32,000 bases of DNA from positions 510,001 through 542,000 of the forward strand of contig NC_017448.1 in assembly GCF_000146505.1 (NCBI RefSeq), in the 5' to 3' direction. How positions within the stretch are numbered: position 1 is the stretch's first letter; every line of letters starts with the position of its first letter. Source of the stretch: Fibrobacter succinogenes subsp. succinogenes S85. GTDB taxonomy: Bacteria > Fibrobacterota > Fibrobacteria > Fibrobacterales > Fibrobacteraceae. Under the pieces are notes generated by a model. That model worked only from the letters and a program-made list of their open reading frames with translations. It had not been told where the DNA came from and made no database searches. Shown here piece after piece: positions 2,954 to 32,000 of this stretch. Both the position numbers and the translations under genes were made by a program.

Positions 2954-3027
<74 letters not shown>

Positions 3028-3177: not shown

Positions 3178-6100
3178 TTATTTCTTTTTCTTGTTGTTCG
3201 CGCTGTTGCTGCGGACGTCCTTCGGCTTGAACTGGACACTGATTTCCACGTTCGTCACCTTGGAACCGAGTCCAGACGGGTCAAACACCTTGTACGTAAA
3301 TTCGTCGATTCCAGAGAAGCCCTTGTTCGGGGTGTATTCGAAGGAACCGTTCTTTTCGTTCAAGACGATTCGACCATTGCGTGGCTTCATCACCGTCTTC
3401 ACGGATTCGAGCTTGTCGCCATCCGGATCCTTAGCGGCTGACATGAGGCCTGTTGCAGCCGGGACCTTGAGCGTTTCTCCTTCGCGAGTCTGGTAAGAGA
3501 GCGGCTTCGTTTCCGGAGCGTTGTTCACGGCAATCACCGTAAATGTAGCCGTCTTGTGAGCGGTAGCGCCTTCCGGGTCCGTAACTGTGAACGTGATGCG
3601 TTCCGGCTTGCCCTTCCAGTGAGAATACGGCTGAGCCACAATCACAGTCTTCTTTGACTTGTCATAAGTCACCTGCAACTGCTTCTGACCCGTGAATTTC
3701 CACTTGAGGTCTTCGAAGTTGTGGTCCTTATCGCGAGCATACTGGTCAAGCTTAATCGTTGCAATCACACCTTCATTCTGATTTTCCCTGATGGTATAGT
3801 CAGGAATATCGCGCATGACCGGAGCCGCATTCACATGCTTCACGATAAACTTCACAACAGACTTGTCCGTGCCACCTGCCGGGTCCGTAGCCGTAAAGAT
3901 AATCGTTTCATCACCGAACCAGTTATCCCTTCTCGGCTTGATTTCAGCAACGTGGTTAGCATTGATTCTCACGTCAATGTTCTTGGCGCCAGAAACACTC
4001 CATCTGATCTCATTCTTCTTGTGGTCCGGATCGCTAACAAATTCATCCAGGTTGACGGACTTGAAAGCCTTGCCTTCAAGCGTCGTCTGTCCCGGGATTT
4101 CCTTCACAATCGGCGGGTCATTCACGGACTTCACAGTAAAGCGGACTTCAACAGAAGCCTTTTCCTTGCTCGGGTCAAACACGTTGATCGTCACTGTTTC
4201 GGTACCGTTCCAGTACTTGTTCGGGATTTCAACAGTGAGGATACCCTTTTCGCTGATGTTGTACTTCAGCTCATGCTTGGAGAAAGTCGGAGCCGGAGCT
4301 TCTTCCTGCTTCTTGGCCTTCTTTTTCTTCTTGTCCTTCTTGTTGTGCTTTGCCTTTACAGGAGCAGCAGAAGCAAACGGATTTTCACCATCAATAGACC
4401 ACTTGAGTTCATCGACGCTGTTATCCGGGTCGGTCACGAACTTCGTCAAGTCAATTGCCGGGAAGGTCTTCTTTTCTTCAATGACCTGCGGCGGAATCGG
4501 CTTAAACTTCGGAGGATCGTTCACCGGAATCACTTCGAACGTAGCCTTTGCAGACTGCTTATCGCCAGCCGGATCCATCACCGTGAACGTAAGCGTTTCC
4601 TTGCCAAACCAGTTCGGATTCGGGGTCGTCACCGTTGCACGGCCGTTCTTGATGTCCACAACAAGCTGGTTGTTGCCAGCAACAGACCACTTGAGTTCAT
4701 TCGGCTTGTTATCCGGGTCGTGAACGATTCTTGCGAGGTCCACCGGAGTAAACCTTTCCTTTTCCTTGATTTTCTGATTGCCAATTTCCTTGGTAATCAC
4801 AGGCGGATCGTTCACCGGAGTCACTTCGAATTCAATCTGCTGAGAAGCCCTTGCACCTTCCGGATCCGTCACATCGAGACGAATCTTTTCAGAACCGTTC
4901 CAGTACTTGTCCGGGGTCGTCACAACGAGCTGCTTCTTGGCATTGATTGTAGTCTTGAGAGCGCGAGTCGGAGCAACTTCGAACTTCAGAGAGCTCGTCG
5001 GATGATCCGGGTCAGAGACAAACTTCAACAAATCAATCGGTTCAAAATGTTCTTTTTCCTTGATGGTCTGGGCGAGAATCGGCCTAATGACCGGAGCATC
5101 ATTCACAGATTCCACGACAAAGTTGACCGTCTTGGAATCAGTTGCGCCATCCGGGTCCTTCACGGTGAACACGACATTGCGTTCACCATGCCAATACTGG
5201 TCGGCAATATTGATGTGAGCGAGGCCGCCCTTATAAATCACAACACTGAACGGATCCTTGACGACTTCTTCTTCCTCGTCATCATCATCCTTCTTGCCCT
5301 TCTTACCCTTCTTGCTCTTCTTAGGCTGTTCGGATTCTGGCTTCTTAACCTTGACCGACCAAGAGAGCTGTTCCATGGTGTTATCCGGGTCGCGGACAAA
5401 CTTGCTCAAGTCGATATCCTTGAACGTACCCTTTTCACGAATCTTCTGCGGCGGAATATCCCTCAAGACCGGAGGATCGTTCACAGAGACAATTTCGAAC
5501 GTAATCGTCTGAGAAGTCTTTGCACCATCCGGGTCGCTCACTTCAAGCATCATGAGTTCAGGAGCGCACCAGAAATCCTTATTCGGTGCAGTCACCGTAA
5601 GCACACGGCTCGGAGAGATTTCGGCCTTGAGCTGCTTAGCACCCGTGATTCTCCAGCGGAGTTCGTTAGGCTTGTTATCCGGGTCCTTCACGAATTCGTC
5701 AAGCTTAATCTGCTTGAAGGTTTCCTTTTCCTTGATCTTCTGGTCCGGAATTCTCTTCACAAACGTCGGAGGATCGTTCACGCGGGTCACTTCAAAGACC
5801 ATCTTGTGGCGAGCATAAGCACCTTCCGGGTCCGTCACGGAGAACGTGAGGGATTCCTTGCCGCTCCACTGCTTATCCGGAACAGAGACGATTACAGTAT
5901 TATCCTTACGGATATCAACCTTGAGGTCACGATTGCCAGAGACTTCCCACTTCAAGGAAGATGCCGGATGATCCGGGTCTTCGGCGAGAGTCGAGAGGTC
6001 GATAGTCTTGAAACGGCCACCTTCAAGAATCGTTTCGCCCGTCGGAGCGCTAGAGGAAATCACCGGAGCATCGTTCACGGAGCGAACTTCAAAGCGAGCA

Positions 6101-9100
6101 GTCTTGCTTGCAGAAGCGCCTTCCGGGTCCGTTGCTGTAAACGTGATGTTAGCAGCACCGTGCCAATACTTGTTCGGAATGTTAACCGTAGCAACACCAG
6201 TCGGATCGACCGTCACACGAAGGCCAGAAGCGGAGGTTTCTTCACCGTCATCCTTGCCCTTCTTCTTCGAAGAACCCTGGCTAATCGGATTTACCTTAAA
6301 CGTCCACTTGAGATCGCTAATCTTGTGGTCCGGGTCCTTGACGAAGTCAGCAAGCTTGATCGGCTGGAACTGTTTCTTTTCGTCAATGGATTGGTCGCGG
6401 AGGTCACGGACAAATTCCGGAGCGTCGTTCACAGAAAGCACCGTAAAGGTCACTTCCTTGCTATCCGAAGCGCCATCCGGGTCGGTCACCGTAAAGCGAA
6501 TCTTTTCAGAACCATTCCAGCTTGCGTTCGGCGGAGTCACCGTCACCTTGTGCGTTGCATCCATAGCGACACGGAGTTCCTTGTTGCCTTCCATCTTCCA
6601 TTTGAGGCGGTTCTTCGGATGATCAAGGTCTTCAACAAAGTTGTCAAGTTCAATCGGCTTGAACGATTCCTTTTCCTTGACAGTCTGGCTTGCAATTTCC
6701 TTCATGACCGGCGGGTCATTCACAGAAACAACCGTAAACGTTGCCGTCGTACGGGCCTTGGCTCCAGACGGGTCGGTCACAGTGAAGGTCACCTTTTCGG
6801 AACCGTTCCACATCTTGTTCGGAGTCTTCACGGTCACAATGCCCGTCTTGGACATATCGACCTTGAGATCCCTATTGCCCGTAAAGTCAATCTTCAAGCT
6901 TTCAAAACGGTCATCCGGGTCAGACACGAGTTCAGACACGTTGAACGGAGTGAATTCGCCCTTTTCCTGAATAGTCTGGTCAGCCACCTGCTTGATTTCC
7001 GGGAGATCATTCACAGATTCCACCGTGAAGAGAGCCGTAGAAGAAGCCTTAGCGCCTTCCGGGTCCGTTACGGTGAACGTAATTTCTTCGGCACCGTTCC
7101 AGTACTTGTTCGGAATAACAATCGTTGCAACCTTGTTCGCATCGATATTGACCTTGAGTTCGGATTCTCTCTTCTTGGAACCGGCAGCAGGCTTGCTAGA
7201 GACAGAGAACGAGAGATCAGAGAGCTTGTTATCCAAGTCCTTCACCATGTCAGCGAGCTTAATCGGCTGGAACTGGCCCTTTTCACGAATCGTCTGCGGC
7301 ATGACCTGCTTTACAAACATCGGAACGTCGTTCACGGATTCCACGGTGAAATTCGCCGTGCGTTCATCGCAAGCGTTATCCGGGTCGCAAACCTTGAACG
7401 TCAGAGTTTCGGCACCGTGCCACTGCGGAGACGGCGGAGTGATGCGCACGACATGAGCACCATCCATGGCAACCTTGAGTTCCTTGTTGCCCGTAATCGT
7501 CCACTTGAGGCGATTCTTGGCATGGTCAAGGTCTTCAACAAAGTTGTCAAGTTCAATCGGCTGGAATTCGCCCTTTTCCTTGATGGTCTGTTCGCGGATA
7601 TCCTTCATGACCGGCGGGTCGTTGATAGCCTTGACCGTGAACTTTGCAGATGTAGATGCACGAGCGCCTTCCGGGTCCGTTGCGGTAAACATGAGCGTTT
7701 CCGTACCGTTCCACTGGTCGTGCGGAATCTTCACGGAGACTTCGTGAGACCTGTTATCAATATTGACCTTGAGGTCCTTATTGCCAGTGACTTCGATCTT
7801 GAGCTTCGAGAAATCGTGGTCGGCATCGCTCAAGTAGTCATCCATGATAAACGAAGTAAATTCGTTCTTTTCTTCAATCACCTGGTCCGGAATCTTCTTG
7901 AATACCGGCGGGTCATTCACAGAACGCACGTTAAGAGCGACTTCCTGCTTAGCAGAACCGCCTTCCGGGTCCGTCACTGTAAATGTTGCAATCGTGTTGC
8001 CAAACCAGCTCGGGTCCGGGATTTCAACCGTAGCGACATGCTGGTCGTCAATATTGACGTTGAGCGTACCAAGTTCCGGCATCTGGCCCTGGTGCTTGAC
8101 TTCAACATCCCAGGAGAGTTCGGAATTCTTGTGGTCTTCGTCCTTGACGAAGTCATCAAGCTTGATCTTGGTGAACTGCTGCTTTTCGTTGATGTTCTGG
8201 TTCGGAATCGGGCGAATGAACTTCGGCAAGTCGTTCACGGAGTTGACCGTAAACACAGCTTCGCAATCAGCAGAAGCGCCTTCCGGGTCCGTAGCCTTGA
8301 ACTTGATGGATTCAGAGCCGTTCCACATCTTGTTCGGGATGCGGATTGTAGCCACACCGCCAGAAACAGAGACCTTCAAATCCTTGGCGCCCGCAACAGC
8401 CCACTTGAGCATTTCGATGCGGTGGTCCGGATCCTTCACATATTGGCCAAGCTGGATCGGTGCGAATTCCTGCTTTTCGTCAATCGTCTGGTCCGGAATG
8501 TTTTGAACAAATTCAGGAGGATCGTTGATGGAGTTGACCTTGAAGAGCACATCCTGCTTTACGGATGCACCGGCAGCGTCCGTCGCGGTAAACGTCACGC
8601 GTTCCTGGCCATTCCAGAACTCGTTCGGGATTGTCACAATGGCAGAACCGTAATTGTCAATTTCAATCTTGAGGTCCTTGTTGCCCGTGACCGTCCACTT
8701 GAGCTTCATCGGATCGTCATCCGGGTCCGTGACATAGTCCGCAAGAGAAATCATATCAAACTGATTTTTCTCATCGATGACCTGGTCCGGAATCTTCTTC
8801 GTAAATGTCGGAGGATCATTCACAGGAGTGACCGTGAAAGCTGCGGTCTTGTTATCGCTACCGTAATCCGGGTCATTTGCGATAAACTTGATTCTTGCAG
8901 CACCATACCAGTGCTTGTCGGGAACAACAATCGTTGCAACGCGGTTAGCGTCAATCGTTACAGACAAATCACCATCAGCCTGAGGACCGCCTGCCGGGAC
9001 AACTTCGGTATCCCATGTAATCAGGTTCTTCTTGTGGTCCGGGTCATTTACAAAGTCATCCAAGCGAATCTTGGTGAACTGCTGACCTTCCGTAATGACC

Positions 9101-9579
9101 TGACTCGGTATCTGAGATACAACCGGCGGATTGTTCACGGATTCAACCGAGAAGTTCACCGTTTCAGATGCACTGGCACCTTTAGAGTCCGTTGCCGTAA
9201 AGGTCAAGTCTTCGGAACCATTCCAAAGGGCATCCGGAGTTGCAATTTCAACCGTATGGTCCGGAGCGATATTCACCTTGAGGGCCTTGTTGCCGCTCAC
9301 CTTCCAACGGATCTGCGAGGGCTGGTCCGTGTCGTCGGTGACAAAGTTATCAAGTTTGAACTTCGTGAAAGTCCCACCTTCCAAAATAGATTCGCCAGGA
9401 ATTCCACCCACCTGTGGCGGTTCGTTCGCCGGAGCCGGTTCAGGAGCAGGTTCACTTACAGGGGCCGGAGCAGCTTGTGGAGCCGGGGCCGCAGATGCAG
9501 GATTTTGCGCAAACGATGATGTTGCAATAACACTAGCAGATGCTATCAAGGTCGCCATGGACCTCTTCAGTTTTTTCAT
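3178..9579 (-). CDS. Giant secreted cadherin-like repeat protein (19 repeats of about 100 aa plus a distinct C-terminal Ig/cadherin-like domain)
   Basis: The ORF is open to 9606, but ATG 9579 (MKKLKRSMATLIASASVIATSSFAQ, signal-peptide-like) has GGAG 7 nt upstream. Each repeat ends in VNDPP/VNDAP and carries a DPDH/DPDN motif, a W.V.GNK.LKV core and TDPEGA. These are cadherin-type Ca-binding signatures (DxNDxP). Confidence 0.9.
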   Translation of the reverse strand: MKKLKRSMATLIASASVIATSSFAQNPASAAPAPQAAPAPVSEPAPEPAPANEPPQVGGIPGESILEGGTFTKFKLDNFVTDDTDQPSQIRWKVSGNKALKVNIAPDHTVEIATPDALWNGSEDLTFTATDSKGASASETVNFSVESVNNPPVVSQIPSQVITEGQQFTKIRLDDFVNDPDHKKNLITWDTEVVPAGGPQADGDLSVTIDANRVATIVVPDKHWYGAARIKFIANDPDYGSDNKTAAFTVTPVNDPPTFTKKIPDQVIDEKNQFDMISLADYVTDPDDDPMKLKWTVTGNKDLKIEIDNYGSAIVTIPNEFWNGQERVTFTATDAAGASVKQDVLFKVNSINDPPEFVQNIPDQTIDEKQEFAPIQLGQYVKDPDHRIEMLKWAVAGAKDLKVSVSGGVATIRIPNKMWNGSESIKFKATDPEGASADCEAVFTVNSVNDLPKFIRPIPNQNINEKQQFTKIKLDDFVKDEDHKNSELSWDVEVKHQGQMPELGTLNVNIDDQHVATVEIPDPSWFGNTIATFTVTDPEGGSAKQEVALNVRSVNDPPVFKKIPDQVIEEKNEFTSFIMDDYLSDADHDFSKLKIEVTGNKDLKVNIDNRSHEVSVKIPHDQWNGTETLMFTATDPEGARASTSAKFTVKAINDPPVMKDIREQTIKEKGEFQPIELDNFVEDLDHAKNRLKWTITGNKELKVAMDGAHVVRITPPSPQWHGAETLTFKVCDPDNACDERTANFTVESVNDVPMFVKQVMPQTIREKGQFQPIKLADMVKDLDNKLSDLSFSVSSKPAAGSKKRESELKVNIDANKVATIVIPNKYWNGAEEITFTVTDPEGAKASSTALFTVESVNDLPEIKQVADQTIQEKGEFTPFNVSELVSDPDDRFESLKIDFTGNRDLKVDMSKTGIVTVKTPNKMWNGSEKVTFTVTDPSGAKARTTATFTVVSVNDPPVMKEIASQTVKEKESFKPIELDNFVEDLDHPKNRLKWKMEGNKELRVAMDATHKVTVTPPNASWNGSEKIRFTVTDPDGASDSKEVTFTVLSVNDAPEFVRDLRDQSIDEKKQFQPIKLADFVKDPDHKISDLKWTFKVNPISQGSSKKKGKDDGEETSASGLRVTVDPTGVATVNIPNKYWHGAANITFTATDPEGASASKTARFEVRSVNDAPVISSSAPTGETILEGGRFKTIDLSTLAEDPDHPASSLKWEVSGNRDLKVDIRKDNTVIVSVPDKQWSGKESLTFSVTDPEGAYARHKMVFEVTRVNDPPTFVKRIPDQKIKEKETFKQIKLDEFVKDPDNKPNELRWRITGAKQLKAEISPSRVLTVTAPNKDFWCAPELMMLEVSDPDGAKTSQTITFEIVSVNDPPVLRDIPPQKIREKGTFKDIDLSKFVRDPDNTMEQLSWSVKVKKPESEQPKKSKKGKKGKKDDDDEEEEVVKDPFSVVIYKGGLAHINIADQYWHGERNVVFTVKDPDGATDSKTVNFVVESVNDAPVIRPILAQTIKEKEHFEPIDLLKFVSDPDHPTSSLKFEVAPTRALKTTINAKKQLVVTTPDKYWNGSEKIRLDVTDPEGARASQQIEFEVTPVNDPPVITKEIGNQKIKEKERFTPVDLARIVHDPDNKPNELKWSVAGNNQLVVDIKNGRATVTTPNPNWFGKETLTFTVMDPAGDKQSAKATFEVIPVNDPPKFKPIPPQVIEEKKTFPAIDLTKFVTDPDNSVDELKWSIDGENPFASAAPVKAKHNKKDKKKKKAKKQEEAPAPTFSKHELKYNISEKGILTVEIPNKYWNGTETVTINVFDPSKEKASVEVRFTVKSVNDPPIVKEIPGQTTLEGKAFKSVNLDEFVSDPDHKKNEIRWSVSGAKNIDVRINANHVAEIKPRRDNWFGDETIIFTATDPAGGTDKSVVKFIVKHVNAAPVMRDIPDYTIRENQNEGVIATIKLDQYARDKDHNFEDLKWKFTGQKQLQVTYDKSKKTVIVAQPYSHWKGKPERITFTVTDPEGATAHKTATFTVIAVNNAPETKPLSYQTREGETLKVPAATGLMSAAKDPDGDKLESVKTVMKPRNGRIVLNEKNGSFEYTPNKGFSGIDEFTYKVFDPSGLGSKVTNVEISVQFKPKDVRSNSANNKKKK

Positions 9580-9992
9580 TTTCGATCTCCGATACCATAC
9601 ATGCAATCAAAATTTCATAGTGAAATTTATCACACGTCCTTAAAATCGTCTTTAAATATAACGCTTTTCCGAGAAATCTTTTCATATTTTGAATTGGTTT
9701 TCCATAACAAAAAATGAGCTTTTTGTCTATTTCGTTTCAGAAATTTACGTAACTAATTGAGCATCAACGAGTTACAGAAAGAAGGTATAAAAAGTCCTCC
9801 ACCATCTGTTTTTCGGGTAAAAATCGCATTTTCCACACAAAACTCATAAAAGAGGCTTCAGTTATGTAAATTTTTTGTAAAACAAGGCTTTTTTGGTCAA
9901 TCGTCCCCCTCCCGAGGGCTTCAAAAAGCTGCAAAATTTCACAAAAAAAACTAATTTTGAAATAAACCGATTAAATCTAACCAGGAAACACA

Positions 9993-22006: not shown

Positions 22007-22138
22007 GAAGAACCCTCCTTTTTTGGATAGTTTTTATCATTGCTCAAAGTAAATATATACTCGTCCAGCGCACTATCGTATCAAAAAAGTAAGAAATGAT
22101 TATTCCATATTAAAAGGGAAAAAAACTATAAACAGGAG

Positions 22139-22163
22139 ATGCCCGCTCAGAGGCGGGCATGAC
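22139..22163. repeat. REP-like hairpin element, copy A
   Basis: (agg)ag-atgcccgc-tcagag-gcgggcat-gac. Confidence 0.7.
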
Positions 22164-22200
22164 AAGACCGGCACAGCGGCCGGGATACTGCATAAAGACA

Positions 22201-22225
22201 ATGCCCGCTCAGTGGCGGGCATGAC
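22201..22225. repeat. REP-like hairpin element, copy B
   Basis: atgcccgc-tcagtg-gcgggcat-gac, 62 nt after copy A in the same orientation. Confidence 0.7.
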
Positions 22226-24903: not shown

Positions 24904-25997
24904 TTCCCTTAACGTTCAAAGAAGTCGTTATCCGCATGGCGCGGCGCATCCTTGGAGAGGAGCGCGTACACGACCGTTTGATTGAACGAGGGATTAAGTT
25001 AAGGCATTTACAGGACGGGTACTCAAGAAATGGCGAGATTCTCGAAAGTTGCGACGGTGGCGAGAGTCGCGATGGTGGCGAGAGTCGCCAGACGCTCATA
25101 TTCATGGCTGACGGCAAGTGGATGCACGGCGGGCTCACGGACCGCTTGCGCGGAATGGCAAGTGCGTACAAGTTTGCTACCGAGCACAATCTTGACTTCA
25201 AGATTTTCCACACTTCGCCGTTTTTGCTTCAAGAAATTTTGCAGCCGAATAAAGTCGACTGGATTATTGACGAACACGAAATAAGCCACAATTGCGAAAT
25301 TGCCAAGCCCGTATTACTTTACCGCGAGGATTTCAATAATGATTCTGCGCTAGAAAGGCAGCTGGATTCTAGGCACAAGCAGTTCCATCTTTATTCGTGC
25401 GTAGACACTGTCGGCGAAGAATTCCCTAAATACTTTAACGAGCTTTTCAAGCCTTCCCCGCTATTAGAAAATGAACTTGCGCATTACAGCGAACTGCTAG
25501 GCGAAAACTACACCGCTATTTCGTTCCGCTTCCAAAACAAGCTCGGAGATTTTAAGGAATTCACGTTCAAGGAATTGTCAGAGAAGGGCAAGCGGAAACT
25601 GTTGAGTGCGGCGATAAATGTTTTGAAGAAGGAGATGCCCCATCAAGTGGGGCATGACAATTCAGATACAGCATTGTCATGCCCGCCAGTGAGCGGGCAT
25701 CACCATCTCGTCAATGAAACAAGTAAAATACTTGTAACGGCGGATAGTCCGACGTTCCTTGCAGAAGCGGAGAAATTGCCGAACGTTGTTACGGTCAAGG
25801 GCAAAAGCATCCACATCGACTTCAACAGTTCCAAGAACGCTACAGATTATCTGAAAGCGTTCACAGAATTTTTCTTGATTTCAAAGGCTTCCAAAGCAAT
25901 CCTTTACCGTAATCGCAAATACAAGACGTATCCGTCAAACTTTCCAAAGTATGCGGCAATGCTTGGGCATGTGCCGTACGAGATTGTAGAAGAATAA
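24900..25997 (+). CDS. Hypothetical protein, possibly fucosyltransferase-like glycosyltransferase
   Basis: GTG start overlaps the upstream stop (GTGA); an alternative ATG is at 24936. The HGGLTDRLRG motif and C-terminal FFLISKA resemble the GT11/O-FucT-type fold (weak). It contains an 18-bp tandem duplication and two REP-like hairpins in frame. Confidence 0.6.
   Translation: MIPLTFKEVVIRMARRILGEERVHDRLIERGIKLRHLQDGYSRNGEILESCDGGESRDGGESRQTLIFMADGKWMHGGLTDRLRGMASAYKFATEHNLDFKIFHTSPFLLQEILQPNKVDWIIDEHEISHNCEIAKPVLLYREDFNNDSALERQLDSRHKQFHLYSCVDTVGEEFPKYFNELFKPSPLLENELAHYSELLGENYTAISFRFQNKLGDFKEFTFKELSEKGKRKLLSAAINVLKKEMPHQVGHDNSDTALSCPPVSGHHHLVNETSKILVTADSPTFLAEAEKLPNVVTVKGKSIHIDFNSSKNATDYLKAFTEFFLISKASKAILYRNRKYKTYPSNFPKYAAMLGHVPYEIVEE
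25635..25700. repeat. Inverted pair of REP-like hairpins embedded in frame in a CDS
   Basis: atgcccc-atcaagt-ggggcat-gac (25635-25658), a 17-nt spacer, then gtc-atgcccgc-cagtga-gcgggcat (25676-25700). Total is 66 nt, or 22 codons. Confidence 0.7.
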
Positions 25998-26366: not shown

Positions 26367-27106
26367 ACCATCAGTTCTGCACTAGAGATATCGGTATTGC
26401 CCTTACCTACAATAGCACCAACATTAGTTCCTTGAAATTCAGAATTGCTGACCTTGACATCATGGATATAACCATTAAAGACTCTTGTACCATCTAGACC
26501 AGTCACGCCTTCTGCAATAATACCTGCACTAGAATTTGTCGCACTAGCATTTAAATAGGCGTCGTCAAAATTCATATTGTACATAGTACCACTAAACTTT
26601 TCAATAAAGGCAACTATTTGAACATTCCCAAAGTGACAAAGTCCAGAAATGACATAGGGTTCATTCGTTTGAGGATCAATCTGAGAATACAAAGTCTGAA
26701 ATGAATACAGAGTAATCATCTTGCCATTAAAAGCGTTATTGCCCTCTGCACAGCCAATGATACTGCGACCAGCAAACTTGATATCCGACGTTACGCGCAC
26801 AAACGCAATAGCACCTTGTTTTGCGGAAAGCCAATTGTTCAAGTAGGTGTTGGCGTCTGGCGTTCCGGCGCCAGTCGGATTTGCCTCATACCATTTATCA
26901 AAACAGACTTCACCAGTCGCCGGGGTCTCCGTATCAGGTTTTTGGCTAAAATTCAACCGAGGATAATCGAGTGTGCCTTCTTTATCTTCAATGAAGCAGA
27001 ATTTTAAACCATCGCCTGGGTCAGCGGCATTGGCAAACGAGACCCCGAAAGAAGCGCTCATTACAAAAAGCGCGACAAAAACGAAGAAAAAAGAACTTCT
27101 TCTCAT
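26363..27106 (-). CDS. Secreted protein with GLUG-like repeats (probably the N-terminal part of a disrupted gene)
   Basis: Signal peptide MRRSSFFFVFVALFVMSASFGVSFANA. AGGATAGG RBS. SAGIIAEG...NVGAIVGKG resembles GLUG motifs. It ends at a TGA that overlaps the next ORF. Confidence 0.65.
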   Translation of the reverse strand: MRRSSFFFVFVALFVMSASFGVSFANAADPGDGLKFCFIEDKEGTLDYPRLNFSQKPDTETPATGEVCFDKWYEANPTGAGTPDANTYLNNWLSAKQGAIAFVRVTSDIKFAGRSIIGCAEGNNAFNGKMITLYSFQTLYSQIDPQTNEPYVISGLCHFGNVQIVAFIEKFSGTMYNMNFDDAYLNASATNSSAGIIAEGVTGLDGTRVFNGYIHDVKVSNSEFQGTNVGAIVGKGNTDISSAELMV

Positions 27107-27250
27107 ACAAAACCTATCCTAATTACCCGATTCGAAATATAGCTAACCTACAAAAAGTATACAATGTTAAAAATTTGCATAGTGATATAACGCACGGGGC
27201 CCCTCCTTATTTTGAGTGTATAAAGTTTTTTTAAGAACGATACATTTTTT

Positions 27251-27281
27251 TCACACACATTCTTGATTAGGAATACATAAT
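27251..27281 (+). promoter_or_regulatory. Module promoter P1 (before the 65-aa ORF)
   Basis: T7 tract, TCACACAC, 17-nt spacer, CATAAT (27276-27281). Confidence 0.45.
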
Positions 27282-27356
27282 CATAGTGCAATTTCAAACG
27301 GAATTGTCGCACAAGGTTGGCGAATCCAGCCTTTTCAAACTCAAAAGGTAATAAAA

Positions 27357-27554
27357 ATGGCAATTGAAGCCCTCGCCGCCATGGCGGCTAAGAAAGCAGT
27401 AGTTGATGTAGCACCCGTAGTAGTAACAGCTGTTGCGACTGCGATAACAAAGGAAATCATCAACCATAGCGACGACATCATCGAAGAAATGGCTTGCGCA
27501 CCCTTCAAGGTCGCAGGTGAAATTCTAGACAGCATTGACCGCTGGTTCTTCTAA
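27357..27554 (+). CDS. Small hypothetical protein (65 aa), Ala/Val-rich N-terminal half and acidic C-terminal half
   Basis: AAAGG RBS. It has its own promoter-like element and its own strong terminator, giving a discrete monocistronic layout. Confidence 0.55.
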   Translation: MAIEALAAMAAKKAVVDVAPVVVTAVATAITKEIINHSDDIIEEMACAPFKVAGEILDSIDRWFF

Positions 27555-27588
27555 AAAAAATACGTAAGAAGTGTTGTGGACGTATTTG

Positions 27589-27625
27589 GCGCACGCCTGA
27601 AAAAAAAGGCGTGCGTGTTTTTTTT
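27589..27625 (+). terminator. Rho-independent terminator after the 65-aa ORF
   Basis: gcgcacgcc / ggcgtgcg(t) stem, A-rich loop, T8 run. Confidence 0.8.
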
Positions 27626-27636
27626 CAAAAAAAATT

Positions 27637-27667
27637 TCGTACAACCCTACTCATTAGAATCCATAAT
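27637..27667 (+). promoter_or_regulatory. Module promoter P2 (before the NYN gene)
   Basis: TTTTTTTTCAAAAAAAA tract, TCGTACAA (27637-27644), 17-nt spacer, CATAAT (27662-27667). Confidence 0.5.
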
Positions 27668-27737
27668 CACTATGTAATTTCGAATGAAATTACCGACTCG
27701 GGCTGACGATTTCAGCCATAAAAAAAAGGAATATACA

Positions 27738-28445
27738 ATGGAAAACAATACAGCAGTTTTCGTAGATGCAGAAAATCTGACATTCTGGGCATACAACAAT
27801 GGTGTACACGACCTCATGAAAAGCCTCCAATCGCAAGGACCAGTCGTCATTCGTAAAGCTTATGGGAAATGGACATCACCTCAACTATCTCCCCTTCAAC
27901 AAGAATTCAACATCAACGGATTTGAGTTGATTCAAACGTACCACCCGATTACAGGCAAAAACTCTGCAGACATCAAGATGGTCGTTGATGCAATGGAAGC
28001 AGCCACCAACCCCTGTTTGCAAACAATTGTACTCGCAACAGGGGACTCTGACTTTTCTCCACTATTTCGCAAACTTCGCGAGATGGGGAAAAAGGTCATT
28101 GGAGTCGGCCCACTATCCAAGCTGAGTGAATGCGTACAAAGTTCCTGCACCCATTACATTTATACAGGAAGTCCCTCCCCCGTCAGCAAGATGGTAGCAT
28201 TATTTCCTGGCGAAGTTCAATCCCATGAAAGAGCCCACGCCTTTGCGACACTCCACAAGATTCTTGAGGCTCAAGACGAACCAATTCTGCTAACAAAGTT
28301 GAAGCCTCTGATGCTCAAAGAGGACAATGAGTTTGACCATGCAAAGCTCGGTTACGAGTCTTTTAAGGACTTCTTATTGGCCTCTGGGGAGGTCCATCTC
28401 AGCCCCATGATTGCAGGGCCGGTATACGCAAGCCTGGCTTCATAG
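27738..28445 (+). CDS. NYN-domain (LabA/DUF88-like, PIN-fold RNase) protein with a C-terminal OST-HTH/LOTUS domain
   Basis: VFVDAENL..., KNSADIKMVVDAME and LATGDSDFSPL are the NYN acidic motifs. The C-terminal KLGYESFKDFL helix bundle is typical of LOTUS. ATG 27738 has AAGGA upstream (track start 27684 rejected). Confidence 0.8.
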   Translation: MENNTAVFVDAENLTFWAYNNGVHDLMKSLQSQGPVVIRKAYGKWTSPQLSPLQQEFNINGFELIQTYHPITGKNSADIKMVVDAMEAATNPCLQTIVLATGDSDFSPLFRKLREMGKKVIGVGPLSKLSECVQSSCTHYIYTGSPSPVSKMVALFPGEVQSHERAHAFATLHKILEAQDEPILLTKLKPLMLKEDNEFDHAKLGYESFKDFLLASGEVHLSPMIAGPVYASLAS

Positions 28446-28464
28446 CTTTTTTTCAAAAAAAAAC

Positions 28465-28493
28465 TTGCTAAAATGGCCACACAAATGTATATT
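28465..28493 (+). promoter_or_regulatory. Module promoter P3 (before the long leader and sigma gene)
   Basis: TTTTTTTCAAAAAAAAA tract, TTGCTA (28465-28470), 17-nt spacer, TATATT (28488-28493). Confidence 0.45.
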
Positions 28494-28496
28494 ATG

Positions 28497-28847
28497 GTAG
28501 TCCCCCTTTTTTGGGGATTTTCCTATTGAACATACCGGTCCATCGGACCGTCCCTTTACATCGGTGGTGTTCCATTGGTGTATTGTGGGGGTATTCAGAT
28601 CGAGTATGCCCTTAGGAGTTAGTTTCCGCAATATCTTTTTTTGATGTCGCCCTCTAGCTCTCGCCTAGGGGGCTTTGCCTTGTTATGCAACAAAACTGAC
28701 AGGTTTTTGGGGGGTCAACCTAAGAAACCTCGTATTGATCAATTCTGTTAAGTGCGGCACTAAAACTGCCGCACCTGCATCACATCAGGCGAACGCCTGT
28801 TGCGTTGGGACATAGTGTCTACAGACATGGTCAATTACGAGGTGCAT
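28497..28847 (+). promoter_or_regulatory. Structured non-coding segment of about 350 nt (long 5' leader of the sigma gene, or an independent ncRNA)
   Basis: No credible ORF on either strand. Several strong hairpins: cggtcc/ggaccg (28536-28550), gccctctag/ctagggggc (28649-28673), gtgcggca/tgccgcac (28752-28774), caggc/gcctg (28786-28799). An internal T7 run is at 28636-28642. Confidence 0.45.
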
Positions 28848-29519
28848 ATGACACTCAAGACCCCAATCGACTACAAGCAAAGAGAAACCGAAACAGCCAT
28901 ATTAACCAACTTTTTTCAAAGATATCCAACAGAAGTCCTTGCCACTTTAGCAGCCTGGTACCGTCCCGTTCTCAAACAATGGGCTTCAAAATTTCGCAGT
29001 GAATTCTACAGGCCTGATATTCCGTTAAGAGACTACGAAGCGGTTGCTATCAGTAGCCTTGCAGATGCCGCAAAGAATTTTGACAGTACTGCCAACACAC
29101 GCTTTTCAACATATCTATACGCATACGCCAGAAACGAATGTCAAAGGCTTGCCTATAACACAAGCAACAATTTTAGGGTATTCAAGCCTTGCAAAAAAAA
29201 GAATCGCGAAGCCACCGACGCTATTCCCTTTGAAAAACTTACTGTTCAAGATTTCAACACATACAACGACATTACCTTCTATCACAGAAGCCAGCTATTG
29301 GAAAGTCAAAGAAGAATTGAACAATTTTACAACATGCTTAGACACATGAGCAACAGCACTTCTGCTGTAGCGAAAAAGCAAGCGACACGAGTTCAGGAGC
29401 TTGCACACCATGTTCTTATGGGAGGTACAAAAAAGAGCTTTTGCGATGCCTCAGGAACTAATAGGGGAACCCTTGATGAGGCCTTGATGGCCATACGTGC
29501 AAAATTACTAAAAGAATAA
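28848..29519 (+). CDS. Divergent sigma-70-family RNA polymerase sigma factor
   Basis: Region 2-like AISSLADAAKNFDSTANTRFSTYLYAYARNE (FD...RFSTY pattern). C-terminal HTH-like segment SGTNRGTLDEALMAIRAKL. ATG 28848 has GAGGTG upstream (the TTG 28800 and ATG 28827 alternatives lack an RBS). Confidence 0.7.
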   Translation: MTLKTPIDYKQRETETAILTNFFQRYPTEVLATLAAWYRPVLKQWASKFRSEFYRPDIPLRDYEAVAISSLADAAKNFDSTANTRFSTYLYAYARNECQRLAYNTSNNFRVFKPCKKKNREATDAIPFEKLTVQDFNTYNDITFYHRSQLLESQRRIEQFYNMLRHMSNSTSAVAKKQATRVQELAHHVLMGGTKKSFCDASGTNRGTLDEALMAIRAKLLKE

Positions 29520-29570
29520 TTTATTCAAAAAAGTCTACATAAACCAACTTATCCAACCAAGGGATTTCCC

Positions 29571-31199
29571 ATGAACGAGCTGGCCAATATTCAAAAAAAT
29601 ACAATGTCATCTATCCTTGGCGCAGGCGAAAAAGTCTGCAAGTCGGCGGTGTTAGATGGTATACCGGAAAGATTTGCCGAGTTTCACCGCCAGGGATACA
29701 TTCATATCCATGACTTAGAGTTTTACGACAAGACCTACAATTGCATCGGGGTATCCGTGAGCGACCTTGTCAAGGATACGGACATTCAGGTTTCTACAGT
29801 GTTACGCAGATTGTATCGTGGCATCGTGAGCCTGACAAACAATCAGTCCGGTGGAATAGGCTTTCTAGATTTCGATGGTGATATGGCCGCATACCGTATG
29901 GACGAAAGTGACGAGATCCTAACGGAGGCCTTTCGCAACTTCTTTGAAGACTTGAATATCTACTCACGAAAAGGTTGCGAGAAGCCCTACACCACGTTAA
30001 ACATCGGTTGTAGAACGTCAACGAAAGCCCGCAGGATCGCTAAAGCTGTTTTAAGCGCAGCCTTGGAAGGGAATAGTGAAGGCAAGCCGTTCATTTTCCC
30101 CAACATCGTCTTCAAGTACTCACGAGCTATCAATGGTACAGAATCCTCCCCCAACTATGACATTTTTCAGATGGCCTTGAAGGGGACTGCGAGCAGAATG
30201 ATTCCAACATATTTCAACTGCGATGCGCCTTTCAACAGGAATGCGAATCCGAACAAAATTGGAATTATGGGTTGCCGAACTCGCGTTGTCGCTGACATAC
30301 ATGGTAATACCACAGGTTTAAATAGGGGGAATATCGCCTGTGTCACGACAAATCTAGTACGGCTAGCAATTGACTCAAATCATGACTTTCAGGTATTTCT
30401 CAAAAAAATCGGTACGCTTTTTGAGGAATGCAAGGAACTGCTACTTCATCGTTTTGCAACGTTATGCAAAGGAACCTCCCCCATTTTCGCTATTGAGAAG
30501 GGCCTATACCTAGATTCGGAAAAAGGACGTGAGGTGGCGCTTATGCATGGGACGCTTTCCATTGGCTTTATCGGTCTGTGGGACGCTCTTTCGGAACTGC
30601 TTGACACAGACTTTTCTGATGTAGACAATCTTCGTATGCATCATGGAAAAGCCCTAGCAGTACTTCAGGTGATGCGGCAAAAAGTGGATTCGTTTATAGA
30701 GCAGAGCCATATGAACTTTTCGCTGTTGGCCAGTGCAGCGGAGGCAACGACCGGCATCTTTGCAGATCGTGATTTCAAGGAATACGGCATTCAATGCAAG
30801 TCTGCGGCGAAGGGTTTCTACACAAATTCCTTCCACATTCCCGTTGACACGTCAATCCGACTTTTCGAAAAAATCCAACTAGAGGCTCCTTTCCACAAAT
30901 TATGTAATGGAGGCTGCATTAGCTATGTGGAACTAGACGAACAGCCCTGCTACAATGTCGGAGCAATACAGAAGGTCGTGGAATTCGCCATGAAAAACAA
31001 CTGTAACTACTTCGGCATTAATTTCCCGCTAGACCAGTGCAACGCATGCGGTCATTTCGGAAGGATCGGCGATACGTGTAGTTCTTGCGGTTCCTCAGAC
31101 ATTTTGCGTTTGCGAAGGGTTTCCGGCTACCTTTCGGAAAAACGAGCATTTACGAAAGGGAAAAAGCGGGAACTGAACCTACGAAAAGCCTCTTTTTAG
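29571..31199 (+). CDS. nrdD: Anaerobic (class III) ribonucleoside-triphosphate reductase, short form without ATP-cone
   Basis: GYIHIHDLEFY, NQSGG and MGCRT finger-loop Cys. C-terminal Zn ribbon CNACG...CSSCG followed by the glycyl-radical motif RRVSGYL. Confidence 0.85.
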   Translation: MNELANIQKNTMSSILGAGEKVCKSAVLDGIPERFAEFHRQGYIHIHDLEFYDKTYNCIGVSVSDLVKDTDIQVSTVLRRLYRGIVSLTNNQSGGIGFLDFDGDMAAYRMDESDEILTEAFRNFFEDLNIYSRKGCEKPYTTLNIGCRTSTKARRIAKAVLSAALEGNSEGKPFIFPNIVFKYSRAINGTESSPNYDIFQMALKGTASRMIPTYFNCDAPFNRNANPNKIGIMGCRTRVVADIHGNTTGLNRGNIACVTTNLVRLAIDSNHDFQVFLKKIGTLFEECKELLLHRFATLCKGTSPIFAIEKGLYLDSEKGREVALMHGTLSIGFIGLWDALSELLDTDFSDVDNLRMHHGKALAVLQVMRQKVDSFIEQSHMNFSLLASAAEATTGIFADRDFKEYGIQCKSAAKGFYTNSFHIPVDTSIRLFEKIQLEAPFHKLCNGGCISYVELDEQPCYNVGAIQKVVEFAMKNNCNYFGINFPLDQCNACGHFGRIGDTCSSCGSSDILRLRRVSGYLSEKRAFTKGKKRELNLRKASF

Positions 31200-31223
31200 A
31201 GTTCTTTCATTTTTTTCAAAAAA

Positions 31224-31254
31224 TCGTACAAAAGCTTGGAAAATGCCCCATAAT
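31224..31254 (+). promoter_or_regulatory. Module promoter P4 (before the last ORF)
   Basis: TTTTTTTCAAAAAA tract, TCGTACAA (31224-31231), 17-nt spacer, CATAAT (31249-31254). The architecture is identical to P2. Confidence 0.5.
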
Positions 31255-31297
31255 ACGGATAGAAAATCAACCGACCATTTGGTCAAAGGATTCCTTG

Positions 31298-31900
31298 ATG
31301 AGACCGAAAGAGTTTATTGACATGTTCCCTTACGGATACACCCGCCTACGCAACTTGAACGGCAGTGCAGCCCTAAGACTTGAAACAAAGTGTACAAACG
31401 CTTACGTATATGTAAAAAAAATACACCGCAGAATGCCGGAAATCAACCAGGATATCGTAGATGACATTCAGTTAGAATGCGACAATGGAGTCATCATAGA
31501 TTGGTTCAACGACAACGCTTGCCGCTATTTCATCATAATGAGAAAGCATGACGAACTGCTCGCTTACAAGATTGTGCTGAACGCATTCTTTCAAAAAGAG
31601 ACCTTTGAAATAATAGGCTATTTCTTTGAGAATGAACACGAGAACCATCGCAAGAGAGTATACAACGAGCGCTATCTGAAAAATGTTTCACCAGATGCCT
31701 TGATAACGGAAACAGACTTTACGAATGAGCGATACGACATCATCTTTCCCGATGATGCATTAACCCACTGCAGGAGACTAGGCAATACCATTGCCATGAG
31801 CTCCATCTGCTCAACTGAGTCATGCAGTCAAAACCACAGTGATTTAAACATCCACAACAACGAATCCTTGGAGGATAACAGTGAAAGCGACATTGAGTAA
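31298..31900 (+). CDS. Hypothetical protein (200 aa) with an acidic Ser/Asn-rich tail
   Basis: ATG 31298 has AAAGGA 7 nt upstream. The track ORF extension back to 31085 overlaps nrdD and crosses the promoter. No CxxxCxxC motif, so it is not an NrdG activase. Confidence 0.6.
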   Translation: MRPKEFIDMFPYGYTRLRNLNGSAALRLETKCTNAYVYVKKIHRRMPEINQDIVDDIQLECDNGVIIDWFNDNACRYFIIMRKHDELLAYKIVLNAFFQKETFEIIGYFFENEHENHRKRVYNERYLKNVSPDALITETDFTNERYDIIFPDDALTHCRRLGNTIAMSSICSTESCSQNHSDLNIHNNESLEDNSESDIE

Positions 31901-32000
31901 AACTGCCCAAAGCATTGTTCCCGATCGGAACCTCCCCGTGTCCTTGGTAGCCAAGCCCGGACACCTCCTGCATACGGAAAATGGTCAATCAATCGTATTG

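Follow-up and report, generated by a model that had tools for sequence, protein, structure and literature searches.

A conserved structured RNA leader of no known family precedes a divergent sigma-factor-like gene in Fibrobacter succinogenes S85

In the 5' leader of Escherichia coli rpoS an inhibitory stem occludes the ribosome-binding site and is opened by trans-acting sRNAs together with Hfq. In other leaders, such as those of E. coli adhE and phage lambda N, the ribosome-binding site is unmasked by RNase III processing; long, imperfect helices are typical substrates of this enzyme. Fibrobacter succinogenes S85 is the model cellulose degrader of the rumen; to our knowledge, next to nothing has been reported on post-transcriptional regulation in this bacterium. 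As for cis-regulatory RNAs of this genus, the Fibro-purF motif has been described as a rare, Fibrobacter-specific candidate orphan riboswitch (PMC7668255).

Here we analysed the 402-nt intergenic region between the end of an NYN gene and the start of a sigma-like gene of strain S85. The window referred to throughout is the whole 32,000-nt stretch from which the region was taken (contig NC_017448.1, positions 510,001 to 542,000). Judged by comparison with homologous loci, the region is a conserved structured leader which belongs to no known RNA family and is associated with the sigma-like gene. We consider it likely that it acts in cis as a 5' leader of approximately 350 nt, made from the promoter at 28465-28493, with translation closed by default and opened by a signal. 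The genes and signals of the locus are as follows.

27357-27554: 65-aa ORF upstream of the NYN gene
27589-27626: canonical terminator with 8 U, between the 65-aa ORF and the NYN gene (sequence scan)
27738-28445, plus strand: ACX73703, NYN (PIN-like RNase) and OST-HTH/LOTUS gene (Pfam NYN 5e-32, OST-HTH 3e-6)
28465-28493, plus strand: sigma70-type promoter, -35 TTGCTA (28465-28470), 17-nt spacer, -10 TATATT (28488-28493) (scan)
28848-29519, plus strand: ACX73704, sigma-like gene of 223 aa, product a divergent sigma70-family-like protein
29571-31199: ACX73705, nrdD, anaerobic ribonucleotide reductase NrdD (exact look-up)
after nrdD: a 200-aa gene, then the start of a Ser/Thr kinase gene

By exact look-up, ACX73703 is annotated as a DUF88/NYN protein and ACX73704 is named "sigma-70 domain protein" or "sigma factor" by NCBI. 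The product of the latter scored 22.3 bits with Pfam Sigma70_r2, just below the cut-off of 24. The best PDB matches of its AlphaFold model (pLDDT 75.8) were all sigma factors (E = 1e-3 to 0.2), and the region-2 fragments superposed at 1.8-2.3 Å with TM of 0.74-0.84 on the target. Sigma-like proteins of related loci are very divergent (30-50% identity), and the immediate upstream neighbour of the leader is the NYN gene in every related locus. It should be added that the cluster is kept in Fibrobacter (27357-32000 of the window; L001, L015, L016, L019, L028, L031, L032 and L072): it comprises the 65-aa ORF, the NYN/OST-HTH gene, the leader and the sigma-like gene and, downstream, an optional 193-aa dTMP-kinase-like gene, an optional nrdD, an approximately 200-aa gene, and genes for a Ser/Thr kinase, VWA and PP2C. 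No nrdG-like activase gene was seen next to nrdD in this cluster, and some of its loci have a second sigma-like paralogue upstream.

Two further features were recorded elsewhere in the window. A 2142-aa ORF on the minus strand (3178-9606) contains about 18 tandem repeats of approximately 291 nt (97 aa) with 60-80% DNA identity, and the strand opposite to it is largely open as well. Furthermore, a GC-rich hairpin element, ATGCCCGC...GCGGGCAT, is present in three copies that are 90-96% alike (22135-22165, 22201-22225 and 25674-25704) and may represent REP-like elements or shared terminators.

The sigma-like protein is rare, with 2 clusters at 90% identity found initially and 7 with a profile. 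Related loci were collected from contigs of these clusters and of close NYN homologues. Search with blastn and the intergenic region of the window revealed five distinct leader versions, namely those of the window, L023, L028, L031 and L032, with identical copies of L023 in L024, L025 and L026, of L028 in L022 and of L032 in L033; the comparisons below therefore use five distinct full-length sequences from one genus and are of limited statistical power. L029 contributed a 5' fragment of the leader only, and the distant L072 type has only a 29-nt motif in common with the leader of the window. Scanning of genome contigs for more homologues returned only one already known MAG, a 20-mer scan of JGI metagenome contigs for the conserved motif gave no matches, viral contigs had no matches for either the motif or the sigma-like family, and a scan for NYN proteins at further loci yielded only relatives with at most 40% identity. 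Among the fetched loci, the conserved motif was found only upstream of sigma-like genes. The original prediction of a leader for a sigma/nrdD transcript stood as far as the sigma-like gene is concerned; its link to nrdD did not, since leaders are present in L031 and L072, where nrdD is absent, and the leader hence belongs to the sigma-like gene.

The Rfam search that had been suggested was conducted with the 4227 families of Rfam 15, among them cobalamin, TPP, c-di-GMP, Fibro-purF, 6S and the RAGATH motifs, a match being accepted at or above the family gathering threshold. At this threshold nothing was found for the leader, and the whole window returned only a tRNA at 2954-3027. In E-value mode, 28300-29000 and four homologous loci gave scattered hits far below gathering, and no family recurred among homologues. 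The earlier failure to recognise a common riboswitch core by eye was thus reproduced by the models, as no Rfam family had even a weak, consistent match. Control of nrdD by cobalamin or NrdR was considered and rejected: P3 of L028 has a GCCACUG-like string and the promoter of the window a weak NrdR-box-like one, neither of which is conserved, no cobalamin model matched, and the leader also occurs without nrdD.

The promoter-like element expected before the region was confirmed as TTGCTA-17-TATATT, and both boxes are kept in all homologous leaders (TTGACT/TTGAAA ... TATATT); we infer a transcription start near 28499-28501. Scanning of 27000-30000 revealed no other promoter-like site on the plus strand, hence none between hairpin P5 (described below) and the gene. 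As no second promoter was detected, the sigma-like gene must be reached by read-through of P5. It should also be added that one L023-type assembly is devoid of approximately 25 nt including the -35 box of the leader (L027 931-960 vs L023 2527-2580). Logan contigs of S85 runs that are identical to the window start at 28512 (L009) and 28629 (L010), and two others start at 27618-27619 (L005 and L007), near the terminator at 27589-27626, with an unbroken succession of NYN gene, leader and nrdD in L005-L007. If these runs are RNA-seq, they would hint, and only hint, at P5 read-through and at a 5' end near the predicted start.

The plus strand of 28497-28847 folds with a minimum free energy (MFE) of -136.3 kcal/mol, compared to -101.4 +/- 5.6 for 100 dinucleotide shuffles (z = -6.2, no shuffle as good), the z-score of the minus strand being -4.7. 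Together with helices that covary among homologous loci, this value substantiates the proposed structured non-coding region. That the region has no credible ORF was also borne out: stop-free stretches are short, without Pfam match, and are not kept in homologues, where frames change or starts and stops are lost. Two candidates were discarded, a 35-aa ORF from ATG 28644 (start missing in L023; early stop in L028, L031 and L032, in the last after 7 codons) and a minus-strand 63-aa ORF (frame shifts among homologues, no Pfam match). The same fate befell the idea of a decayed pseudogene, for which a translated search had been advised: tblastn with all proteins of the L001 locus gave nothing in 28446-28847, and no match or conserved ORF spans the region. 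No repeat copies of the leader were found elsewhere in the window.

The 5' part of the leader consists of a terminal hairpin and a first domain, M1.

28499-28519, plus strand: P0, 5'-terminal hairpin AGUCCCC-UUUUUU(U)-GGGGAUU (fold, homologues)
28520-28618, plus strand: M1, multi-helix domain (alignment, RNAalifold)
28520-28525/28613-28618, plus strand: P1a, closing helix of M1, UUCCUA/UAGGAG, Shine-Dalgarno(SD)-like
28531-28535/28604-28608, plus strand: P1b, CAUAC/GUAUG, with the internal loop UUGAA/CCCU between P1a and P1b
28536-28541/28545-28550, plus strand: P2, hairpin of M1
28558-28567/28572-28581, plus strand: P3, hairpin of M1
28582-28603, plus strand: less well-defined stretch of M1

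The C5 tract was found at 28502-28506 as predicted, and the G5 tract exists as well, one base off at 28587-28591 instead of 28586-28590. Long-range pairing between the two was not upheld: C5 pairs locally with GGGG 28513-28516 inside P0. The position of P0 is kept among homologues while the stems differ (CCUGC/GCGGG in L023, AUCCC/GGGAU in L028, UCCC/GGGA in L032 and CCCCA/UGGGG in L029), and the hairpin covaries in every homologue.

For M1, a hand alignment with corrected L023 had 97.4% of cells paired, compared to 35-43% when slid, and 7 double-change pairs, among others C-G to U-A in P1b and U-A to A-U in P1a, the covariation of P1 depending on the hand alignment of this one sequence. In the unsupervised MAFFT alignment the corresponding values were 96.1% vs 33-43%, with 5 double-change pairs, and 1 of 500 shuffles was as high. 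RNAalifold on the hand alignment recovered P1a, P1b, P2, P3 and P5. The conserved unpaired stretches of M1 are the UUGAC of its internal loop and AAGCCUUU, which separates P2 from P3, so that the domain combines the covarying helices and conserved unpaired nucleotides of an aptamer-type fold. On account of these stretches M1 appears the more sensor-like domain, as compared with M2 downstream.

The middle part is composed of short hairpins, some of which have competing partners.

28631-28647, plus strand: small hairpin AUAUC (28631-28635)-U7-GAUGU (28643-28647) (MFE folds of window, L028, L031 and L032)
28649-28657/28665-28673, element 28649-28684, plus strand: P5, GC-rich 9-bp hairpin followed by UUUGCCUUGUU, terminator-like in scan
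28679-28703, plus strand: H6, stem CUUGUUA/UGACAGG with a conserved 11-nt loop, UGCAACAAAAC
28701-28730, plus strand: P6, linker hairpin, AGGUU(U) with AACCU 28717-28721 or AAACCU 28725-28730 (read from sequences)

The T7 run lies where it had been reported, at 28636-28642; premature termination there lost its ground, as the run is a hairpin loop of variable length with no stem before it (T5 or TTTAC in homologues, the stem itself being absent in L023). The 9-bp stem GCCCTCTAG/CTAGGGGGC at 28649-28673 was recovered as P5. It has 6 G-C among its 9 pairs and passes a lax terminator scan, and the tail UUUGCCUUGUU has only 3 consecutive U. This weak U-tract, set against the 8 U of the canonical terminator at 27589-27626, makes termination at P5 doubtful; moreover, H6 starts within the putative U-tract. 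Two changes in P5 among homologues are one-sided and keep the pair (U.G to C-G, G-C to G.U), as does a U.G to U-A change in H6.

The most widely conserved piece of the leader is H6, the exact motif of which was present in 19 fetched loci. These include the distant L072 type, whose leader keeps only the H6 sequence and has a different GC hairpin before it. Identity of the P5-H6 segment to L023, L028 and L032 is 100%, 98% and 91%, as opposed to 60%, 80% and 68% for the M1 core, and the segment is 90-100% identical where M2 is 65-76% identical. P5 and H6 are, in this alignment, supported by conservation and pair consistency, not by covariation; their near-invariance speaks for structural constraints that overlap or for a trans-acting factor that recognises them. 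When the complement of the H6 loop was sought in the window, matches occurred at chance level only.

Alternative pairings involve both hairpins. The stretch GCCCUUAGG (28608-28616) can pair with 28664-28673 and thereby replace the 5' strand of P5 (-14.6 vs -17.4 kcal/mol); this competitor is possible in the window, L028, L031 and L032 and absent in L023. Similarly, GUUAGUUU (28619-28626) can form an alternative helix, P7, with AAACUGAC (28693-28700) in place of H6. RNAalifold favours P7 with a mini-hairpin over H6, H6 and P7 both fit the data, and two conformations of this region are possible in the modelled folds. The stem of P6 is GGUUU/AAACC in the window, L023 and L031 and GGUUC/GAACC in L028, and in homologues its 3' strand lies directly next to, or shares bases with, the 5' strand of P1', which closes M2, the 3' domain.

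28727-28843, plus strand: M2, four-way junction (covariation, covariance model)
28727-28741/28828-28843, plus strand: P1', closing helix of M2, 15 bp
28744-28748/28821-28825, plus strand: P1c, extension of P1'
28750-28759/28767-28776, plus strand: P2'
28778-28790/28795-28807, plus strand: P3'
28808-28812/28816-28820, plus strand: P4'
28839-28843, plus strand: SD sequence GAGGU in the 3' strand of P1', 4-nt spacer, AUG at 28848-28850

In the MAFFT alignment of five sequences, M2 has 48 pairs with 90.8% of cells paired, compared to 24-40% when slid; compensatory double changes affect 16 of the 48, and none of 500 shuffles was as high on any of the five measures. P1' alone is 93.9% paired, with 6 compensatory pairs. 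The perfect 8-bp stem announced earlier, GTGCGGCA/TGCCGCAC, is present at 28752-28759/28767-28774, within P2', and the recommended comparison of homologous loci has shown hairpins that are conserved and covarying. A covariance model of M2 scored 92-128 bits on the plus strand vs 29-44 on the minus strand, with no other match in 116 kb of related loci; these strand scores and the many G.U pairs identify the plus strand as the RNA strand. Few unpaired positions of M2 are conserved, with almost none at the junction, and by this token the domain looks like an effector. M1 and M2 as copies of one module were considered and rejected: with filters off, the M2 model gave at most 3.8 bits in 28440-28724, and the two domains have in common only the 5' motif CCU..AUUGAyCAU.

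The arrangement (G/A)AGGU-N4-5-AUG is kept in all five leader versions, all MFE folds of which show a paired SD. The upstream ATG 28827 is not kept (ATA in L023), and the form annotated by NCBI is that of 223 aa. Leaders of sigma-like paralogues are built differently (approximately 150 nt in L001, L015 and L016, and approximately 490 nt in L072), and their MFE folds again show a multi-hairpin domain whose closing helix takes up the SD. As differently built leaders all pair the SD, its sequestration looks like a selected property. Homology to the shorter leaders of L001, L015 and L016 was not detected by the covariance model (L001 at most 9.4 bits). It should be added that in L072 (approximately 5230-5460) a perfect AGGAGG forms the end of the first closing helix, ACCUUCUAUU/AAUAGGAGGU, and an AUG a few nt after it opens a 12-codon mini-ORF, MLFIAFLISRIL, without equivalent in the window, which may be a leader peptide. 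Mean predicted accessibility of positions -13 to +3 was 0.35-0.44 for the sigma-like gene, below the 0.74-0.78 of the NYN gene but not below the 0.23-0.24 of nrdD, and the latter comparison counts against a leader closed by default. The ribosome-binding region of nrdD, CAAGGGAUUUCCCAUG (29545-29573), is predicted to be largely paired, with a mean unpaired probability of 0.23-0.24; according to the folds, nrdD may have its own small SD-occluding hairpin.

In the flanking genes, contigs of the L023 type, from four independent assemblies, share 97-100% identity with S85, while across 28400-28900 the value falls to 65-89% per 100-nt bin. Within the leader, the M1 core is 60% and M2 68% identical, with the helices preserved. 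The dips in identity (28400-28960, 29500-29700 and 31200-31400) also affect other intergenic regions and 5' ends of genes, the spacer between nrdD and the 200-aa gene being 69% identical. Substitutions are of a broad spectrum comprising all types, and DGR-like targeted mutagenesis was dismissed as their cause, as they are not adenine-specific. From the alignments, the divergence of the leader looks like recombinational replacement by an old, structurally equivalent allele and not like local hypermutation. With flanks approximately 99% identical and a divergent leader whose helices are kept, the pair of strains amounts to a natural compensatory-mutation experiment and a guide for mutagenesis.

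Taken together, these data would fit the following course of events. Transcription would proceed from the sigma70-type promoter at 28465-28493 through the leader into the sigma-like gene, and the RNA would fold into the 5' hairpin, M1, P5/H6 and the four-way junction M2, with the SD locked in P1'. Since P1', the long helix that closes M2, holds the SD at a distance of 4 nt from the AUG, translation would be closed by default, and expression would require P1' to be opened or cut. The leader would thus probably keep the sigma-like gene silent until a signal opens it. The likeliest route would be a signal sensed at M1 and relayed through the invariant P5/H6 by means of the alternative pairings, i.e. 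GCCCUUAGG with the 3' strand of P5, and P7 vs H6. P5 could add partial premature termination; this, like the default-off logic, is what we infer from the folds. Candidate triggers would be a metabolite, a protein such as the adjacent NYN-LOTUS RNase, or RNase III.

Two more specific versions of the trigger were weighed, and to each of them we attach a rather low probability. In the former, the leader would be a metabolite riboswitch, with M1 (perhaps together with M2) as the aptamer and P5/H6 with the SD helix as the expression platform. The covarying helices of M1 with conserved unpaired UUGAC and AAGCCUUU, the terminator-like hairpin after it with a feasible competitor pairing, and the sequestered SD would suit such a device, and Fibrobacter already has a rare orphan candidate in Fibro-purF (PMC7668255). 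However, none of the 4227 Rfam families matches, a sigma-like regulator as target suggests no obvious ligand, and the competitor pairing is absent in L023. Furthermore, M2 is without conserved junction nucleotides, unlike a ligand pocket, and the M1 core tolerates 40% divergence between near-identical strains.

In the latter version, the leader would be bound or cleaved, either by the NYN-LOTUS RNase or, at the 15-20 bp closing helix, by RNase III, with unmasking or destruction of the mRNA as the outcome. NYN domains have a PIN-like nuclease fold, and OST-HTH/LOTUS domains bind RNA. All related loci, including those with other downstream genes, have the same order of NYN gene, leader and sigma-like gene. 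The invariant sequence of the H6 loop suggests recognition by a trans-acting factor, and the long imperfect closing helix resembles a typical RNase III substrate. Nevertheless, the case is purely contextual, and most of the leader does not share the good conservation of the NYN protein.

It is less likely still that an independent sRNA of approximately 185 nt (28500 to about 28684) ends at P5, with M2 as a separate leader of the sigma-like gene. There is a promoter before and a terminator-like hairpin after such an sRNA, and P5-H6, the most conserved segment, might serve as a seed or bind a protein. Against it, there is no promoter-like site between P5 and the gene, which accordingly needs P5 read-through, the U-tract is poor, and H6 begins inside it. 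Moreover, the motif occurs only upstream of sigma-like genes and is absent from the JGI metagenome and viral contigs, and no enriched complementary target exists within the window. A separate sRNA of about 140 nt, as had been proposed, is not favoured either, there being no second promoter and the element never being found away from a sigma-like gene.

Finally, a region without function, whether a decayed gene, a repeat element or a set of hairpins formed by chance, might draw on the general variability of intergenic regions of this locus between strains, but it is contradicted by compensatory changes that maintain at least 9 helices, and with no conserved ORF, no Pfam match, no tblastn match from proteins of related loci and no repeat copies elsewhere in the window, chance or pseudogene origin is excluded on these grounds and we regard the whole reading as exceedingly improbable.

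We thus retain the cis-acting leader closed by default and opened by a signal. If true, a two-domain, covariation-supported leader with the ribosome-binding site of a divergent sigma factor locked inside would open the way to a regulatory circuit; the cluster around it comprises the NYN RNase, the sigma-like protein, NrdD, Ser/Thr kinase, VWA and PP2C. A bolder proposal, which we hold to be speculative and rather improbable, is that M1 with P5/H6 constitutes a new class of RNA sensor for an alternative sigma factor, either a riboswitch or the RNA partner of NYN-LOTUS, with ancient alleles, divergent in sequence but equivalent in structure, being kept and exchanged within the species.

In comparison with known systems, the leader resembles that of rpoS in being a long structured 5' UTR of a sigma-factor gene in which the SD region is paired to an upstream segment, so that translation would be off by default and would need an activator. 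It is unlike rpoS in having no sequence or structural homology to it: in the present leader the SD helix is the base of a covarying four-way junction, a second domain and an invariant hairpin pair precede M2, and the organism belongs to Fibrobacterota. With the leaders of adhE and lambda N it has in common a long imperfect duplex of 15-20 bp which contains the ribosome-binding site; here, in contrast, the duplex closes a multi-helix junction, not a simple hairpin, and cleavage is only conjectured. The successive, partly exclusive hairpins (GCCCUUAGG vs the 5' strand of P5; P7 vs H6) recall trp-type attenuators and tandem glycine aptamers, and the common start of both modules of the window, CCU..AUUGAyCAU, recalls tandem riboswitch arrangements. 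Unlike trp-type attenuators, however, the window has a weak U-tract after P5 and no leader peptide, and unlike in tandem glycine aptamers, the covariance model of M2 does not detect M1. The Fibro-purF motif differs in its purF context, the present leader being several times larger, with two domains and no Rfam match; yet both are orphan cis-regulatory RNAs narrowly confined to Fibrobacter, with few unique representatives and recognised by comparative analysis (PMC7668255). In this company, the leader would extend the short list of orphan structured RNAs of Fibrobacterota.
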